A DNA stretch of 64,000 bases from a virus. The stretch spans positions 80,193 to 144,192 of IMG/VR virus record IMGVR_UViG_3300046170_000148; one strand, 5' to 3'. The notes below the pieces were generated by a model. That model was not told where the DNA came from. It did not search any database and saw nothing but the letters and a program-made list of their open reading frames with translations. A program made the position numbers and the translations under genes. Positions 21,027-29,744 of this stretch are shown piece by piece (position 1 is the first letter of the stretch; each line of letters begins with the position of its first letter).

Positions 21027-21596
21027 TTAGACAGGAGCTCCAGTCACTTCGAGACTTTCCAGAACTTTTAGGACATTCTGTGGAGATGATTCGCCATATG
21101 GGTCTTCACCATGATTGTCCCCAAAGTCTGGTTCTGGTAAGAATGCCTCGACCACACCATTATCAACAATCATTGCATAACGCCATGAACGATACCCGAA
21201 ACCAAGATTTGCTTTGTCAACCAACATACCCATCTTGCGAGTAAACTCACCCGAACCATCAGGAACAACTTTCACATGTTCGAGGTTCTGGTCTTTTGCC
21301 CAACAGTTCATTACGAAACTGTCATTGACTGATACACAATAGACATCATCGATACCATACTTTGCAAACTCACCTTCAGCCATCAGACGCTCAAAGTCAG
21401 GCAACTGATATGTTGAACACGTTGGAGTAAATGCGCCTGGCAGTGAGAACACCACCACACGTTTATGTAAGTCTTTACCACCGAATAGAAACGAACTATT
21501 TACTTGTCGCCATTCAAATGGATTGTCTCCACCCAGTTCATCATTACGAACACGGGTTGGAAATGTTACTTGAGGTAATACAACACCTTTATTCAT
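21027..21596 (-). CDS. Peroxiredoxin (Prx5 type)
   Basis: SLPGAFTPTCS, VSVND.FVM, RSWRYAM. Confidence 0.9.
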   Translation of the reverse strand: MNKGVVLPQVTFPTRVRNDELGGDNPFEWRQVNSSFLFGGKDLHKRVVVFSLPGAFTPTCSTYQLPDFERLMAEGEFAKYGIDDVYCVSVNDSFVMNCWAKDQNLEHVKVVPDGSGEFTRKMGMLVDKANLGFGYRSWRYAMIVDNGVVEAFLPEPDFGDNHGEDPYGESSPQNVLKVLESLEVTGAPV

Positions 21597-22731: not shown

Positions 22732-24550
22732 TTACGCTCTAGGAGAAAAAATTTCAATCAATTCATCTTTACCCTTCACCTTGATATCACCAATCTTCTT
22801 GGTTGGCATATCAATCTGGTCATTCGTATAAGATGATATGATAGTCTTGTAATCTATGTAGTCGCCTCGTGCGGCAGTGGCTTCTAGTCTTGCTGCAAGG
22901 TTGACCGCATCTCCAATAACTGAGTAATCAAATCTGGATTCAGAACCCATGTTGCCAACAATACAGTCCCCAGTGTTAATTCCAGTCCCCACGTTGATAG
23001 GAGGGAGACCAGCTTCTTCATATTTTTTTCTAAGTTCATTGGTCTTTTCCTCAATCTGAATAGCAGACTTCACTGCCATCTCTGCGTGGTTAGGGCAAGG
23101 TAACGGTGCGTTCCAGAATGCCATGATACAATCACCCATATACTTATCTATAGTGCCGCCATTGTCTTGAATGATTTTAGTCATCTGATTCAGATAATCA
23201 TTGATAAGATGCACGAGCCCTTCAGGGGTCATCGTTGTTTTTGTAGTGTTCTGATATCGGGGTGAACCCACAGATATCCATAAACAGGAATGTCATCTCT
23301 TTGCGTTCACCACCCAACTTCATGAGACTTGGGTCTTTGGCAAGCATGTCAACCATGTCGGGTGATAGGTATGTCCCGAACTGACCCTTAATCATTTGTT
23401 TCGCCTTGAACTGCGTATAGAACTGCACAAACGAACCGTGTGCGAAGATTATAACAAATGTTATAACAGGGAAGATAGGGTCAAGGAGCATAAAGGTATT
23501 GTCGAATATCAGTGACGCACCATTCACGAAACTTGAACTGATGATGAGGAAAACTACCCCCGAAATCACGATAGAGAGTTTAGATAACATGAATAGTATC
23601 ACTATCGATACCACTATCGTTGCGAAAAGTTCATAAAACTTAAACTCTGGCATTCGTGTGATAGTCACACCGTCAATCATCGTCTTCAACAGGTTTGCCT
23701 GAATGTCGTGGGGATACATCGCACCAACAGGAGTTGATACAACAGATGTTCCCTTGAAGGTCGCACCCAGTATCGCAATGCTTCCTGCGGGTATCTGGTC
23801 TATCTCTGTGAAGGAATATCTCTTGAACTCGTTCCAGAATGCGATACGCACATTACTATTATCGTCTGTCTGCACCACATCAAACTTCGGTATGCGAACA
23901 AATCGTATTCCATAATCGTCTGTCTTGACTTGATAGGATACATCACCCGCAGCCACACGAAGGATATCCAATGCAAAGGCAGGATACATGCGACCCTCAA
24001 AATTCTCAATCAAGGGGACTCTGCGTGTGATACCATCAGTGTCTTGTGTAGATGACATTGTTCCATAACCGATTGCAGCGTCCATGATTTCAGGTCGCGC
24101 AAATAACATACCCTCAAGTTCAGGTCGGAACTCTACTGCGTCTCTTTCACCGAATGTTGCTACACCTACAGGTTTTGGTCGGGAGTCTATGTTCGTCTTA
24201 TCGTTTGGTGCAATGGATACTACTGCGTTCATATCAAACAACGCATCAGCAAGTGCGTCATCACCACCGAACCTGTCTGGTTCTGACAACAAGATATTGA
24301 TACCCAGTATCGAGTTATTGAGTTTTACCAACTCATCTGCCATCGTTTCGCGGGGAATAGGATACTGACCGAACTCCTCTAGAGTCAGCTCGTCAATATC
24401 AATAAGGACAATCTGTTCTGATTGTTTAGCGTCCTGTCCTCTTTGCATCGAGTCAAAGAAAGACAGTCTTGCACTTTCGAGTAGAAAGGGGTCAAGCAGT
24501 CTCAGGGTTACCATCAACCCCAGAGTAATAAGGACGTGCCACGTTTTCAT
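22732..24550 (-). CDS. CHASE2-domain class III adenylate cyclase (joined across extra C near 23224)
   Basis: CHASE2 (IDID..GQYP.PR, DGITRRVP), 3 TM helices, FMDICGFT, DKYMGDC, GDAVNLAARLE. Confidence 0.9.
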
Positions 24551-25654
24551 TGTTTGATATTTATAGTAGAACTACCACCACCGTTTACGGTGATAGGGTC
24601 AAACTCTCGGCCTTCGGTATCGAGGTTTATTGTTGTCTCTTCGTTATTCGATACAGATATCTCTACGATGTTCTGCACATTTCGAATCAAAGTGACTTTC
24701 TCACCATCGACAATCGTGTTGATTTGTGTATCTCCGTCAAACCCTTCTAGTGTCCCTTCTACAAGCGTTTCGCCTTTGTCTTCCTTTTCTTTCAACAACT
24801 CTGCGTCTAGGTCAGAGTATGTGTCAAGTAGATTTGTCAGGAAGTCCACATCCAGATAGTCAATGTCTAGTTCTGTAAACTCCAGATAATCACGTTCTAG
24901 TTCATCATCTTCGAGTAGTTGCTCATCGAGAAAATCGATATCAAGAGGATTGATATTCTGCCGACTATTTACTGACGTATAGAACTCTTGTTCTGTCATT
25001 CTCTCTTTAGGTGGATTGATAATCAAAATGTTATCCAGCATATCTAGAGTCAAGTCTAGAATAGCAGGATTGCTGGGAGGCATTTCACTCACAGAGGTTG
25101 TAGTGGATTGAAACGGTTTATTCAATACCACCTCACCAGTCATAGTTGCAACAATAATTTCACCCGATGATATCCCATTCACATCGGGTAACAGCACTAC
25201 AAGTGTGCGACCAAACTCGTCTACGGTCACAGTAAAGTCTGTGCCGCGAATACCGATTGAGGCAGTCGGTGTTCTCAATCTAATATTCTCTTTTTCAATC
25301 GTCCCAAGTTTGCCTGTAATGAAACGAGCAGTTCCCTGCGCGAATGTCATTGCAAGGTCAGACTTGCTTGGGTCATCATCAAACACCACATTGTCAATCA
25401 CAATGCGTGTGTGTTCGGTCATGCGAAGTTTCGAATCATCGACAAACTTCACCTGCATACGCCCCTCGCCTGTGCGAAGGTCGTCTTTTGATATTATATC
25501 GAACCCTTTTTCAGGTTCGAGTTCATTGGTATCTCTTACAACTTGTCTCCAGCCGACTGCGTCGGTCAATGAGACCTACATCCTTACTGACAGCCGGTAG
25601 CGGTGCCAGAATCAGACTGAGCGATGCATAGAGTATTATCCGTGGTAGCGTCAC
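24547..25654 (-). CDS. FecR-domain periplasmic protein with acidic tail (signal peptide recovered across insertion near 25563)
   Basis: D.LRTG, F.D.S, TPTASIGIRGTDF; upstream frame gives (M)TLPRIILYASLSLILAPLPA. Confidence 0.8.
24558..24565 (-). promoter_or_regulatory. T4 late promoter directly upstream of the cyclase
   Basis: TATAAATA 7 nt before ATG 24550. Confidence 0.6.
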
Positions 25655-26321
25655 CTGAGCCCTCAATTTGTATGTCTAATGTATCAGACTGCAACGTTGA
25701 CTCTTGTTTGATATCAATGTCCCAGTAGTTTGTTGTTCCAACGCCATCGATTGTCATAGAGTGACCATCATATCCGTCACCATCATAATCGATTGTTACA
25801 TTACTTCCTAAGAAGTCAATGCTGTTTGTTGCGTTGTTGATGTCAATATCAGCAGTTACGCTGTTATAGTCACCGTCAACAATCCAGTCAACATCTGCGC
25901 CCGTGGCTTGGTCGTTATTACCAACGCTCAAGTCCAGTGTGTTATTACCACCATCCAAATCGATTACTACATTACCGCTACCAGCACCATAGGTGTCAGT
26001 TCCGTCAATGTCGATTGTGACTGTGTTGGTGTCGCCATCGATGTCTAAATCAACATCGGTGTTGTCACCTATAATATCACCAAGAACTTTGTTGGTATCA
26101 CCAACGGTATCGATACTCAGATTGATGTTATCACCATCAACCTTCATTTTGGTTGTGTCACTAGCGTTATTACTAACTCTGTTGCCACTACCATCTTGAG
26201 TAACGTCAATATCTGCACCAGACCCTACTTGGTCGATGTAGACCGCATTATCAGCCCATGCGAGCGATGTCCCTGCGTTTACTAGGAACAACATCACAAA
26301 TATTCTTTGCAAAGTGTTCAT
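25584..26321 (-). CDS. Secreted curlin-like repeat protein
   Basis: Signal peptide; N.VYIDQVG..IDVTQDG.GN and ~22-aa G-x-x-N repeats; adjacent to csgG. Confidence 0.7.
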   Translation of the reverse strand: MNTLQRIFVMLFLVNAGTSLAWADNAVYIDQVGSGADIDVTQDGSGNRVSNNASDTTKMKVDGDNINLSIDTVGDTNKVLGDIIGDNTDVDLDIDGDTNTVTIDIDGTDTYGAGSGNVVIDLDGGNNTLDLSVGNNDQATGADVDWIVDGDYNSVTADIDINNATNSIDFLGSNVTIDYDGDGYDGHSMTIDGVGTTNYWDIDIKQESTLQSDTLDIQIEGSGDATTDNTLCIAQSDSGTATGCQ

Positions 26322-26322
26322 T

Positions 26323-27135
26323 TTACTCTCCTGTGAATGTCCAGAACTGTTTTCTGTTTCCAAGTTCTATCAGTTCTAAGACACCTGTTTCAATTGCACG
26401 TTGAGTGGCAATCGAAACGCTTTCGTTACGGGCAGTTCCAGACTCAATCTCAACGAGTCTAGTTCCCTGTTCTACATACCGAAATACATCTCCGCCAAAT
26501 GCGACAGATAGTATGGTCTTACTTGTTATGACATCAAGCAATACCTCACCAGTCGCAACACTTATCAACCTCATGTTGATTGTCACCGTGTCACGACTAA
26601 ACTCTCGTGAAGAACCGATGCCAAGATATCTTGCGCCCGAGCCTCCACTTTCGGTAGAGTGGTCATATCCCACAATACCGCCTGCAATAATCATACCAGC
26701 GAATGTCAACGCTGGTAGTTTCTTTGCGCCATCTCCGTCATAAGAACTTCGTGTCTGTCTTATGAGTTGTCTTTCTTTTGTCAACCAGTCCAATGCAGTC
26801 CTATCGACTACCTTGAAGAACCTGCCATTAGACGCACGAGTCAAAGCACGAATCAGATATACATCTGGTGCTTGAGTGACTGCGGTGCTGAATGATGTCC
26901 CACCGCTTGCGTTCTGTCTTTTCTGCCCTGTTTGGTCGGTGAACGAATAAATCGCTACCGTTGGCTTTCTTATCGGAGGTTCAATGTTCTGTAATTGTTC
27001 TGTAAGAAGATTTGATTGAACTTTGACTGGTTCTGGTTTCGCTGGTATATCCCAACTCGTTCCACCTAGAGTGGTGCAACTAGAAACCAAAATCGCCGAT
27101 AGGAATAACAATGACAGTTTGGCTACCATCTTCAT
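26323..27135 (-). CDS. csgG: Curli secretion channel lipoprotein CsgG
   Basis: LVSSC lipobox; VAIYSFTDQTGQ, FSTAVTQ, LTKERQLIRQTR, GGSGARYLGIG. Confidence 0.9.
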   Translation of the reverse strand: MKMVAKLSLLFLSAILVSSCTTLGGTSWDIPAKPEPVKVQSNLLTEQLQNIEPPIRKPTVAIYSFTDQTGQKRQNASGGTSFSTAVTQAPDVYLIRALTRASNGRFFKVVDRTALDWLTKERQLIRQTRSSYDGDGAKKLPALTFAGMIIAGGIVGYDHSTESGGSGARYLGIGSSREFSRDTVTINMRLISVATGEVLLDVITSKTILSVAFGGDVFRYVEQGTRLVEIESGTARNESVSIATQRAIETGVLELIELGNRKQFWTFTGE

Positions 27136-27613
27136 CAGTTACCGTTAACTCCACTTTGTTTTCTACATCATCTTTCACATATGAGATACCCGCACCTTCA
27201 ATTTCAAATTCACCTTGATTGGTTGGGTTCTCACCGAACATCTCTTCGACGAGTTGTCTGGACAGTGTAGAGTAAATTCGACTTTCTACGTTTCGTATAA
27301 ACTTAGCAAGTGTCGTATTCTTTGCGTCTCGTTCTAATTGTTTTTGTAAGTCTTCTAATTCTTGTTTTAATGCTTGTTTGCGTGATGTCTCTTGATTCTC
27401 AATCGTCAGATAGTGTGATGATTGATTGACACCATTGAATGATGGCGACTTGAAGTTGTGTTCGATTGGCGCGCCTATCGCATGACTTATAGCCAGACCC
27501 CAACAGATACCAACTGAAAACCACAATACTGGACTAAAGATTAACTCTGATTTAGTCTTTCCTGACTTGGCCAGCATCTCCCATGCAGTTTGTTCTCTAC
27601 TCGTTCTCTTCAT
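27080..27613 (-). CDS. csgF: Curli assembly protein CsgF (start uncertain)
   Basis: Signal peptide then HNFKSPSFNG; ESRIYSTLSRQL; adjacent to csgG. Confidence 0.75.
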   Translation of the reverse strand: MKRTSREQTAWEMLAKSGKTKSELIFSPVLWFSVGICWGLAISHAIGAPIEHNFKSPSFNGVNQSSHYLTIENQETSRKQALKQELEDLQKQLERDAKNTTLAKFIRNVESRIYSTLSRQLVEEMFGENPTNQGEFEIEGAGISYVKDDVENKVELTVTDEDGSQTVIVIPIGDFGF

Positions 27614-27848
27614 CGTCCTGCCTCTTCATCTCGATTGCAGTGTCTAACTTCTGCTGCAATCGTATAATGTCATTGTCAAGCATACGAATACGGTCAATCA
27701 GACCGATAAGAGTTGTATGGGTTTCACCCAGATACGCCTCAACCTTCTCCGTAATGGTCTTCCATACGAAGTAAATCATATACAGCATACCAACTGCTGC
27801 AACGATAGGGAATCCGAAATCTTTAATTGCTGTTACTATATCCATCAA
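27597..27848 (-). CDS. Small single-TM coiled-coil protein
   Basis: FGFPIVAA TM helix; paralog of the next gene. Confidence 0.7.
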   Translation of the reverse strand: MMDIVTAIKDFGFPIVAAVGMLYMIYFVWKTITEKVEAYLGETHTTLIGLIDRIRMLDNDIIRLQQKLDTAIEMKRQDDEENE

Positions 27849-28126
27849 TCACGTCTCGCATCGTTCTTACCATCTGCTCTGGATATGCGACCTAAGTCAG
27901 GCCGAATACCCAGAACAACACACATGGTAGTGTCGATGCGAATCATATCGTGATTCATAGTTTTAACCCTATTGTCCAAAGCACTTACAATTCCGTGGAT
28001 TGATTGAACCTGACCGATTACACCTTCCATAATGTATCGTAGTGTCAGGAACATAAAGAACCCACCGATGAGTGCTGCGGCAATAGGAAATCCCAGTTCT
28101 GCAATCAAACTGAATATTTCATTCAT
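27845..28126 (-). CDS. Small single-TM coiled-coil protein
   Basis: LGFPIAAA TM helix; LDNRVKTMNHDMIR mirrors the paralog's LIDRIRMLDNDIIR. Confidence 0.7.
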   Translation of the reverse strand: MNEIFSLIAELGFPIAAALIGGFFMFLTLRYIMEGVIGQVQSIHGIVSALDNRVKTMNHDMIRIDTTMCVVLGIRPDLGRISRADGKNDARRD

Positions 28127-28155
28127 ATCGCACACTTACCTCTTTATCTCATTCC

Positions 28156-28163
28156 TATTTATA
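28156..28163 (-). promoter_or_regulatory. T4 late promoter heading the csg/cyclase operon
   Basis: Exact TATAAATA. Confidence 0.75.
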
Positions 28164-28184: not shown

Positions 28185-28225
28185 AAAAAAATGAGACGCT
28201 AACCGTGGGCGTCTCGCGGGTCTAT
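28185..28225 (-). terminator. Intrinsic terminator
   Basis: GAGACGC-N9-GCGTCTC followed by ATTTTTTT. Confidence 0.7.
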
Positions 28226-28285
28226 TGCGCGACCAACCGTTGGGGATTACTCCGACCAGAGCAGAGTTTTGAGACATCATCGGGT

Positions 28286-28744
28286 CTATTCGACTATGTG
28301 AAGTAGAACTCTCTCCTCGTCGGTAAAGTTATACCCCGCATATAGTCTTTGAGATTGATAGGAGATACTTTCTCCAACAGCCCATTTCTTTATCTCACCG
28401 TCTTCAAATACCATTCCTGTCTCACCATTCGGCACTATCAGAGGAATGTGATGAACAATCGAGTCCGAATAGTATTTGATATGTGTATTCGGTGGGACAA
28501 ATGATTTTGGATATAGAACAATGAAATGAGCTGCTCGTATCCTATCATCTGAAATCAATTCTTGAGTTTCTGGTATTAGTTGACTGGCTTTCGAGTATCT
28601 TCCATATTTTAGAATTACTGTTCCCCAACCTTTACCAAAAGGATTCTGTTCTTTATGTGGTATTCTCCTCACATATTTCTTTACTGTTTGATAATCTCTT
28701 TCAAGAATATCAACATTAGATAGCAACTTTTCGACCAGACTCAT
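28286..28744 (-). CDS. Asp/Asn beta-hydroxylase-like protein, possibly degenerate
   Basis: HIPLIVP..W..GE..YN.TDEERVLL; iron-binding His positions appear substituted. Confidence 0.55.
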   Translation of the reverse strand: MSLVEKLLSNVDILERDYQTVKKYVRRIPHKEQNPFGKGWGTVILKYGRYSKASQLIPETQELISDDRIRAAHFIVLYPKSFVPPNTHIKYYSDSIVHHIPLIVPNGETGMVFEDGEIKKWAVGESISYQSQRLYAGYNFTDEERVLLHIVE

Positions 28745-29744
28745 ATTCTTCTCTTCGAATATTGTCAACCAACGCTAAGAATTCAGAACCATCCATCACG
28801 TTACCATCCACTGTATATTCGTCTTTGTGACCCTTGCCTGGATATAGTTTGTCCATATACGAGATATTACGCCACAACTTACGCATGTTACCATCCATTA
28901 TATCAGTTGGACGAGCGTGTAGAGTGATGTTCTGTTCCATATAAACAACCTGACCATCCTTCCAATCATGGGTGTAGATATATTCAGGACGATTGATTTT
29001 CTCCCACAGATAGTCCTTGAACTTCAGACTTTCTTCTTCGGTCATACCATCAAACTTATGGAAGAGTGTGCCAGGGAAGTGAATACCCTTTACACCAGAC
29101 GGTGTTGACTGTTGTAGTTTACACATCATACCATCAACAGGAACTTGATTGTATCTAACCATCTGTTTCTGTTCGTCAATCAGATTACCTGTAAAGTTTT
29201 CTCTGTTCCAACGATATACACTCTGGAGTTCATCAACCATCGTTCTGTCTTCGTGGTTCAGTTTGTTATATGCTTCTTTGGTGCATAGGAATGCGGTCTG
29301 TGACCCTTCGGTATGTTCAACCGACACTAGACCGATGATGCGGTCTCCGTCATTGAGAGCAACTTGGTCACTATGCCAGCCCAGTATACCATTTGCAAAA
29401 ACGCCCTTCGGTCTACCCTTTTTGTTTCTTTGATAGGTAACAACCGACATAGTGTTTCGATAGTCTGGTTCAATCTCTGATGAACCGTTGAGAATATTCA
29501 ATCGAAGACTATTCCAATGAATACCCTTCATTGTCCCTACGGATGTTGCAAGATGAACAATTGAGTGTGCGGGATTACCCCACTGCATCTGAACATCATA
29601 TGTTCGCTTCTGGTCTAGTTTCTGGTCTACCAGAACAACAGACTCATTCGCAACAAGTCTACCCAAATCTGCGATATGTTCGTCAGAATAGATATCAAAG
29701 TCATACGCTTCTACTGCGTTATTCTTTAGAGTTCTTACTTTCAT
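28716..29744 (-). CDS. TauD/TfdA family 2-oxoglutarate dioxygenase
   Basis: WHSD, GSQTAF, HDW..G..V..QNITLHAR..R.LWR. Confidence 0.8.
   Translation of the reverse strand: MKVRTLKNNAVEAYDFDIYSDEHIADLGRLVANESVVLVDQKLDQKRTYDVQMQWGNPAHSIVHLATSVGTMKGIHWNSLRLNILNGSSEIEPDYRNTMSVVTYQRNKKGRPKGVFANGILGWHSDQVALNDGDRIIGLVSVEHTEGSQTAFLCTKEAYNKLNHEDRTMVDELQSVYRWNRENFTGNLIDEQKQMVRYNQVPVDGMMCKLQQSTPSGVKGIHFPGTLFHKFDGMTEEESLKFKDYLWEKINRPEYIYTHDWKDGQVVYMEQNITLHARPTDIMDGNMRKLWRNISYMDKLYPGKGHKDEYTVDGNVMDGSEFLALVDNIRREEYESGRKVAI

Follow-up and report, generated by a model that had tools for sequence, protein, structure and literature searches.

Pelagimyophages were reported to carry genes for the curli proteins CsgG and CsgF in 2020 (PMC7029224), and those of Melnitz were taken up in a 2022 paper (PMC9004378); cyclase and FecR go unmentioned in both. 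A study in mSystems, also from 2022 (PMC9599517), described the full module in pelagiphage Podoviridae and Myoviridae, in the order 'HK' (histidine kinase), CsgF, CsgG, CsgA/B, FecR, second CsgA/B and adenylate cyclase (AC). According to that study, FecR, HK and AC are absent from bacterial type VIII secretion system (T8SS) operons, and the accessory proteins CsgE, CsgC and CsgD are also missing from alphaproteobacterial curli loci; within viral modules FecR is universal and the cyclase merely frequent, and less frequent in podophage versions. The module was estimated at ~0.1% of assembled viral proteins, its transcripts were found in ocean metatranscriptomes, and an alphaproteobacterial origin and transfer between phage families were inferred. 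Here, we examine a stretch of 64,000 nucleotides (hereafter the window) of IMG/VR virus record IMGVR_UViG_3300046170_000148, positions 80,193 to 144,192, in which seven genes on the minus strand (22732-28163) form a copy of this known and already published pelagiphage T8SS–FecR–adenylate cyclase cassette. An initial annotation of the window had named only csgG and csgF as reported in phages, a statement that is out of date, as FecR and the cyclase were described as part of the cassette in 2022 (PMC9599517).

A second group of described systems resembles the FecR–cyclase half of the cassette. FecR and CHASE2 are paired in the Burkholderia BiofilmReg operon and its counterpart in Pseudomonas aeruginosa PAO1 (PMC5192318), and in Sinorhizobium meliloti the FecR-domain gene smc02177 lies one locus tag from cyaD1, SMc02176 (PMC5498481). 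To the published cassette we add the CHASE2 domain of its cyclase, the bacterial FecR–CHASE2 pairing and the finding that bacterial loci have the two modules separately, together with the conservation of a late promoter, a contrast in evolutionary rate between genes and the rejection of the kinase label. CHASE2 paired with CsgG was not found in the literature searched, and none of the papers listed for CHASE2 together with phage concerned a phage-encoded cyclase. We read the locus as a late envelope module, in which CsgG–CsgF would export a curlin-like protein while FecR and the CHASE2 cyclase would turn envelope state into cyclic AMP (cAMP), and we consider this reading about evenly balanced between right and wrong.

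Parts of the cassette and their co-inheritance in phages

The seven genes are tightly packed, 3' of a terminator-like hairpin and a TATAAATA motif. Each of the seven genes called in the initial annotation was recovered on the minus strand, with the coordinates below; that the FecR and cyclase genes are not intact open reading frames (ORFs) here had gone unreported. TM stands for transmembrane segment and aa for amino acids.

22732-28163, minus strand: seven-gene cassette, comprising tmA, tmB, CsgF, CsgG, curlin-like, FecR-domain and CHASE2 class III adenylate cyclase genes
28185-28215, minus strand: terminator-like hairpin, a GAGACGC / GCGTCTC stem followed by a T-run, which ends the upstream gene
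28156-28163, minus strand: T4-type late promoter motif TATAAATA; tmA lies ~20-30 nt downstream
27845-28135, minus strand: tmA, start GTG at 28135 or ATG at 28126 (phrog_18771, 1e-31)
27597-27848, minus strand: tmB, paralogue of tmA (phrog_18771, 2.5e-25)
27080-27613, minus strand: CsgF homologue (PF10614, 5.9e-13; 49.6 bits against a cut-off of 25.8; profile positions 9-132 of 132)
26323-27135, minus strand: CsgG homologue, outer-membrane lipoprotein channel (PF03783, 5.5e-45; 153.7 bits against a cut-off of 20.8)
25584-26321, minus strand: curlin-like secreted acidic protein (Curlin_rpt, E 0.0017; 18.6 bits, under the cut-off of 20.7)
24547-25654, minus strand: FecR-domain periplasmic protein, main ORF 24547-25569 and signal peptide 25562-25654 (PF04773, ~1e-11)
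22732-24550, minus strand: TM-CHASE2-3TM class III adenylate cyclase, a single 605-aa gene in relatives, in two pieces here
23222-24550, minus strand: CHASE2 part of the cyclase (PF05226, 1.8e-31, residues 11-317)
22732-23271, minus strand: cyclase-domain part (PF00211, 5e-17)

Co-inheritance of these genes in phages is strict. Two sets of viral contigs were compared, one near the CsgG of the window and one near that of HTVC008M, and CsgG loci were counted where at least 2.5 kb lay downstream, FecR loci where at least 3.5 kb did. FecR was present at every CsgG locus (42/42 and 50/50, or 92/92) and the cyclase at every FecR locus (34/34 and 19/19, or 53/53), as gene-order conservation, the check named in the initial annotation, would require. 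In IMG/VR, stretches that encode CsgG number more than 586. Among cultured phages, HTVC008M and Melnitz have the cassette, at 33-50% identity to that of the window, and they and their relatives have a second curlin-like gene between FecR and cyclase (loci L097:5127-6461, L098:5279-6307 and many of L196-L275), whereas the clade of the window is without it. Gene order is permuted, with the parts still clustered, in some HTVC008M-like contigs (L262:8442-15762; L272:5343-12874; L215-L219, L221), where the cyclase adjoins tmA-tmB or lies upstream of the whole set and where, in some, tmA stands between csgF and csgG. Several loci of the window's clade (L050-L052, L057, L074, L087) have a gap of ~0.4-0.9 kb at the position taken elsewhere by the second curlin-like gene.

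The late promoter is conserved with the genes. TATAAATA occurs 11 times in the window against 2.07 expected, a count that none of 100 shuffles reached, and it sits upstream of tmA in 35/37 distinct relatives; the motif initially annotated at 28156-28163 (minus strand) is thereby confirmed as both enriched and retained. Because of this retention ahead of tmA, the cassette is likely to be transcribed late and as one unit. The hairpin at 28185-28215 was read by eye, since its loop is 9 nt here and the hairpin scan permits 3-8, hence its absence from the scan's list. A second exact copy of TATAAATA lies at 24558-24565 (minus strand), 8-15 nt upstream of the cyclase start and within the end of FecR, and across 43 related loci there are 8 cases of the motif inside the FecR ORF, counting any position in the gene. 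The internal copy may have arisen by chance within coding sequence, or it may serve as a late promoter inside the cassette.

The carrier is an uncultured marine T4-like (Kyanoviridae-type) myophage. Its record is a 144-kb IMG/VR virus, 87% complete, with a DNA polymerase and a gp46-like protein that are nearest those of Kyanoviridae; the nearest complete GenBank phage is Phage C48C1 (OQ984149.1; 64% aa identity for DNA polymerase, 59% for gp46), followed in the same comparison by cyanomyophages and Melnitz at ~47% identity. Phage C48C1 gave no tblastn match to CsgG or CHASE2 queries (locus L195), and the cassette is therefore not universal in its lineage. Megablast of the cassette region against GenBank phages returned no match, and relatives surfaced at protein level. 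The neighbours of the cassette on the same strand are a peroxiredoxin-like gene (21027-21596; phrog_2281, 3.9e-57) on one side and a TauD-type dioxygenase-like gene (28716-29744; phrog_24590, 1.3e-13) on the other, both of kinds that are usual auxiliary genes in marine myophages.

Secretion, sensor and small membrane proteins

The catalytic residues of the cyclase are intact. Both metal-binding Asp residues, the Lys, the Asn and the Arg named in the initial annotation are present: across 32 cyclase orthologues D, K, D and R never vary, and N and S are kept in 31/32. The combination of Lys with Ser is the purine/ATP-type signature, as predicted from these residues, and the nearest solved relatives of the domain are adenylate cyclases (P. 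aeruginosa CyaB, 3.4e-33). Hydrophobic stretches read from the sequence at about residues 5-20 and 311-385 fit an N-terminal TM and three later ones, on either side of CHASE2. The PycC models of PADLOC match the cyclase (best 1.3e-24), as expected of any class III cyclase domain, and neither a Pycsar effector nor a cyclic nucleotide monophosphate (cNMP)-binding gene was found in the record; given the generic nature of this match, the ATP-type residues and the lack of an effector gene in the record, we do not accept membership of Pycsar.

The FecR protein consists of a FecR domain alone behind a cleavable-type signal peptide. No anti-sigma domain was found in it, nor any sigma factor or TonB-dependent transducer among its annotated neighbours, and on these grounds we reject its identity as a FecR/PupR-type anti-sigma regulator; an iron-regulator role likewise found no support. 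Its weak similarities are to Leptospira FecR-domain lipoproteins, and its AlphaFold2 (AF2) model was unusable (pLDDT 38.5).

In the secretion half, csgF lies directly upstream of csgG and overlaps it. Residues 12-267 of the phage CsgG align to residues 8-254 of Escherichia coli CsgG (3x2r; 2.7e-38), with a Cys after the signal sequence. CsgE and CsgC had no match in the whole 144-kb record, in keeping with the initial annotation, which had listed csgE, csgC and csgD as missing from the window; CsgD was not searched. Behind its signal peptide, the curlin-like protein has one curlin-type repeat only, which is N-terminal, conserved and under the Pfam cut-off in score; two Cys residues in its C-terminal part are invariant. 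Its AF2 model is a beta-solenoid (pLDDT 75.6) and matches Pontibacter CsgA best (8c50_A; Z 18.0, root-mean-square deviation 8.9, 204 aligned, 21% identity), with unrelated beta-helices at Z 17, close to the value for CsgA; a Foldseek search of the PDB with the model found no match at E <= 0.001. Evolution is fastest in the curlin-like gene, at 57% mean pairwise identity compared with 72-76% for other genes, and slowest in the cyclase domain, at 85%, a contrast that would fit exposure of an outer part and constraint on a catalytic core.

The two sensor genes are interrupted in the window by single bases. The cyclase is broken into ORFs of 442 and 179 aa by one extra base at 23224, the window reading GACCCCTGAAGG where relatives read GACCCCGAAGG or GACCCTGAAGG, and another at 25561 shifts the FecR signal peptide (25562-25654) into a different frame from that of the main ORF; a third one-base insertion unique to the record lies at 28209, in the terminator loop. 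Against a relative of 97% identity, these three are the sole indels across 5.5 kb. Because relatives lack the insertions at 23224 and 25561, and because a near-identical assembly encodes the cyclase intact, as 605 aa that equal the window's pieces at 442/442 and 163/164 positions, they are almost certainly sequence errors, judging from these alignments, and neither pseudogenes nor programmed frameshifts. We considered and rejected programmed +1 frameshifting at a CCC_UGA of the cyclase gene, each relative examined being in frame at that site; the intact 605-aa protein and the further unique one-base insertions in the record also count against it. Other single-base insertions unique to the record, relative to several relatives, occur at 28263, 29828 and 30309, and the record seems to carry systematic errors of this kind. 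In a 108-kb contig (L056:5407-8366) FecR is in two pieces and the cyclase in three, through true decay or more assembly errors.

The proteins encoded by tmA and tmB, 83-96 aa long, each have a single hydrophobic segment, N-terminal in tmA, and a helical tail; tmA has a conserved L-D-x-R...D-x-I-R motif. A protein-cluster search with tmA returned viral hypothetical clusters alone. We reject the histidine-kinase label given to these proteins (PMC9599517) on account of their length, the lack of a kinase domain (neither HisKA nor HATPase matched in NCBIfam, or in Pfam with E allowed up to 10) and the lack of an invariant His across 69 members of the family. A weak match to the holin phrog_4898 was obtained for tmB (6.5e-4) and none for tmA, and no lysin adjoins the pair.

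Bacterial counterparts and competing explanations

Bacterial relatives of the cassette show its two halves separately. The cyclase side was sampled as the 80 best relatives of the phage cyclase, mostly from Alphaproteobacteria and 27-35% identical, with neighbours taken within 10 kb. A FecR-domain gene lies within that distance of 28/80, and these 28 loci have 30 FecR domain matches in all, 15 of them at most 1.5 kb from the cyclase; together with the published pairs (PMC5192318, PMC5498481), these counts uphold the FecR–CHASE2 association put forward initially, and the bacterial pairing recasts the phage FecR and cyclase as a sensor pair, not a regulator of iron or curli. CsgG, CsgF, curlin-like, tmA and tmB genes were found within 10 kb at 0/80 of these cyclase loci. 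From the other side, a close CsgG was found in 7 of 401 sampled alphaproteobacterial genomes, and in all seven loci csgF adjoins csgG, with curlin-like genes nearby in 2/7. The phage cassette unites two modules that bacteria keep apart.

Two further observations concern the cyclase relatives. In a 1.4-Mb marine alphaproteobacterial single-cell genome (locus L106; G001:C4, ~105124-109440), a CHASE2 cyclase lies between two ORFs with cNMP-binding domains, which looks like a compact bacterial cAMP circuit, as far as domain content can tell. Relatives of 32% identity were also found on short contigs binned as Candidatus Woesearchaeota (L149, L157), where misbinning or transfer is possible.

For the phage, we propose that the first module (csgF-csgG with the curlin-like substrate) would most likely form a CsgG–CsgF pore in the outer membrane of the infected cell and export the acidic curlin-like protein to the cell surface, and that the second (FecR with the TM-CHASE2-3TM cyclase) would most likely respond to periplasmic or surface state by making cAMP inside the infected cell. 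We infer that the two cooperate, with the sensor reading the state of pore, fibre or envelope, and that cAMP would act on host effectors. The sequence of antenna, relay and cAMP output suggested by the initial annotation is a plausible refinement of the published cassette, to judge from the parts encoded: a curlin-like antenna at CsgG–CsgF, whose state would reflect contact, a superinfecting phage or envelope damage, would signal through FecR to the CHASE2 cyclase, and cAMP would retune the cell or the timing of lysis. In this complete form we consider the trans-envelope sensor improbable.

Several points weigh against cooperation of the two modules, and in particular against a simple relay through FecR. 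In S. meliloti, signal perception does not depend on SMc02177, which functions downstream, as a target of Clr (PMC5498481). Neither FecR nor cyclase was found within 10 kb of alphaproteobacterial csgF-csgG (0/7) and, with 0/80 on the cyclase side, the expected linkage of csgG and csgF to FecR and cyclase did not extend to bacteria; since no bacterial locus examined joins the modules, it is phage synteny that must carry the coupling, and this synteny could reflect co-transfer of two independent cargo modules. No cNMP-binding protein is encoded in the 87%-complete phage record, leaving the phage without a cAMP receptor of its own there. The cyclase is reported to be less constant in podophages (PMC9599517) and, given that scarcity, FecR may serve the secretion system and not the cyclase. 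The curlin assignment is itself soft, as the Pfam score is under cut-off and other beta-helices fit the model nearly as well.

Of the alternatives to a late envelope module with a cAMP output, the one that survives best is a complete curli (T8SS) system, in which amyloid-like fibres would serve aggregation ('sibling capture') or act as a superinfection shield, with FecR and cyclase as accessory regulators (PMC9599517, PMC7029224); we regard it as possible, if on the unlikely side. The cassette has conserved genes for CsgG, CsgF and a signal-peptide curlin-like beta-solenoid, csgF-csgG(-curlin) is how such genes are natively arranged in Alphaproteobacteria, and a universal FecR beside a cyclase that is just frequent in viral modules (PMC9599517) would suit this explanation. 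However, the single late promoter and the lack of a cNMP-binding regulator make cAMP control of cassette expression hard to picture, infections with Melnitz produced no clumping (Buchholz et al., PMC9004378), and bacterial FecR–CHASE2 pairs exist without any T8SS.

Independent cargo that happens to travel together, with cyclase and FecR raising cAMP to reprogramme host metabolism and CsgG and CsgF unrelated to that task, is in our view doubtful. It would account for the separation of the modules at every bacterial locus examined and for the fact that each half is a self-sufficient bacterial unit, but not readily for linkage at 53/53 informative phage loci in lineages 33-50% identical, nor for the persistence of this linkage through gene-order permutation and transfer between phage families (PMC9599517). 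We think it very unlikely that the cassette is a lysis or envelope-permeability device, in which the CsgG/F pore and holin- or spanin-like tmA and tmB would set outer-membrane breach or lysis timing with cAMP as an input, an idea shared by PMC9004378 and the initial annotation: the late promoter, the weak holin match of tmB (phrog_4898, 6.5e-4), the outer-membrane lipoprotein nature of CsgG and the architecture of tmA and tmB, one membrane segment and a helical tail, speak for it, but the holin match is marginal and lacking for tmA, nothing ties cAMP to lysis in T4-like phages, and the curlin-like substrate and FecR would have no role.

The late envelope module deserves attention as the cassette is very common in ocean viromes and its cultured carriers infect SAR11 and OM43. 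If the sensor cyclase is active, abundant ocean bacteria would gain a second-messenger input late in infection. Once the FecR–cyclase half is recognised as a CHASE2 sensor pair of the standard bacterial kind, a vague annotation gives way to experiments that are specific and cheap, and the cassette could offer a tractable model for the CHASE2 domain, which is still without a ligand.

Comparison with known systems

The closest described system is the pelagiphage T8SS module (PMC9599517), which has the same gene set and order as the cassette of the window. The two differ in that the window's clade is without the second curlin-like gene and is 33-50% identical to HTVC008M and Melnitz, and the published description differs from ours in calling the small proteins histidine kinases and in omitting CHASE2.

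Each half has its own bacterial counterpart. Alphaproteobacterial curli loci resemble the cassette in having csgF directly upstream of csgG and no csgE, csgC or csgD, with CsgG 39-44% identical to the phage CsgG, but differ from it in having no FecR, cyclase, tmA or tmB within 10 kb. The bacterial FecR and CHASE2 pairs (PMC5192318; PMC5498481) share with it a secreted FecR-domain protein beside a TM-CHASE2-3TM sensor; unlike the phage genes, they are without CsgG/F or curlin neighbours, and their output may be a histidine kinase. For the cyclase itself, the nearest solved proteins are P. aeruginosa CyaB and cyanobacterial cyclases (3r5g, 2w01, 1wc0), alike across the catalytic domain from end to end (3.4e-33 to 2.6e-24) and in all catalytic residues. 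Where the phage enzyme departs from CyaB is in being phage-borne and in carrying a periplasmic CHASE2 sensor in place of CyaB's sensor module.

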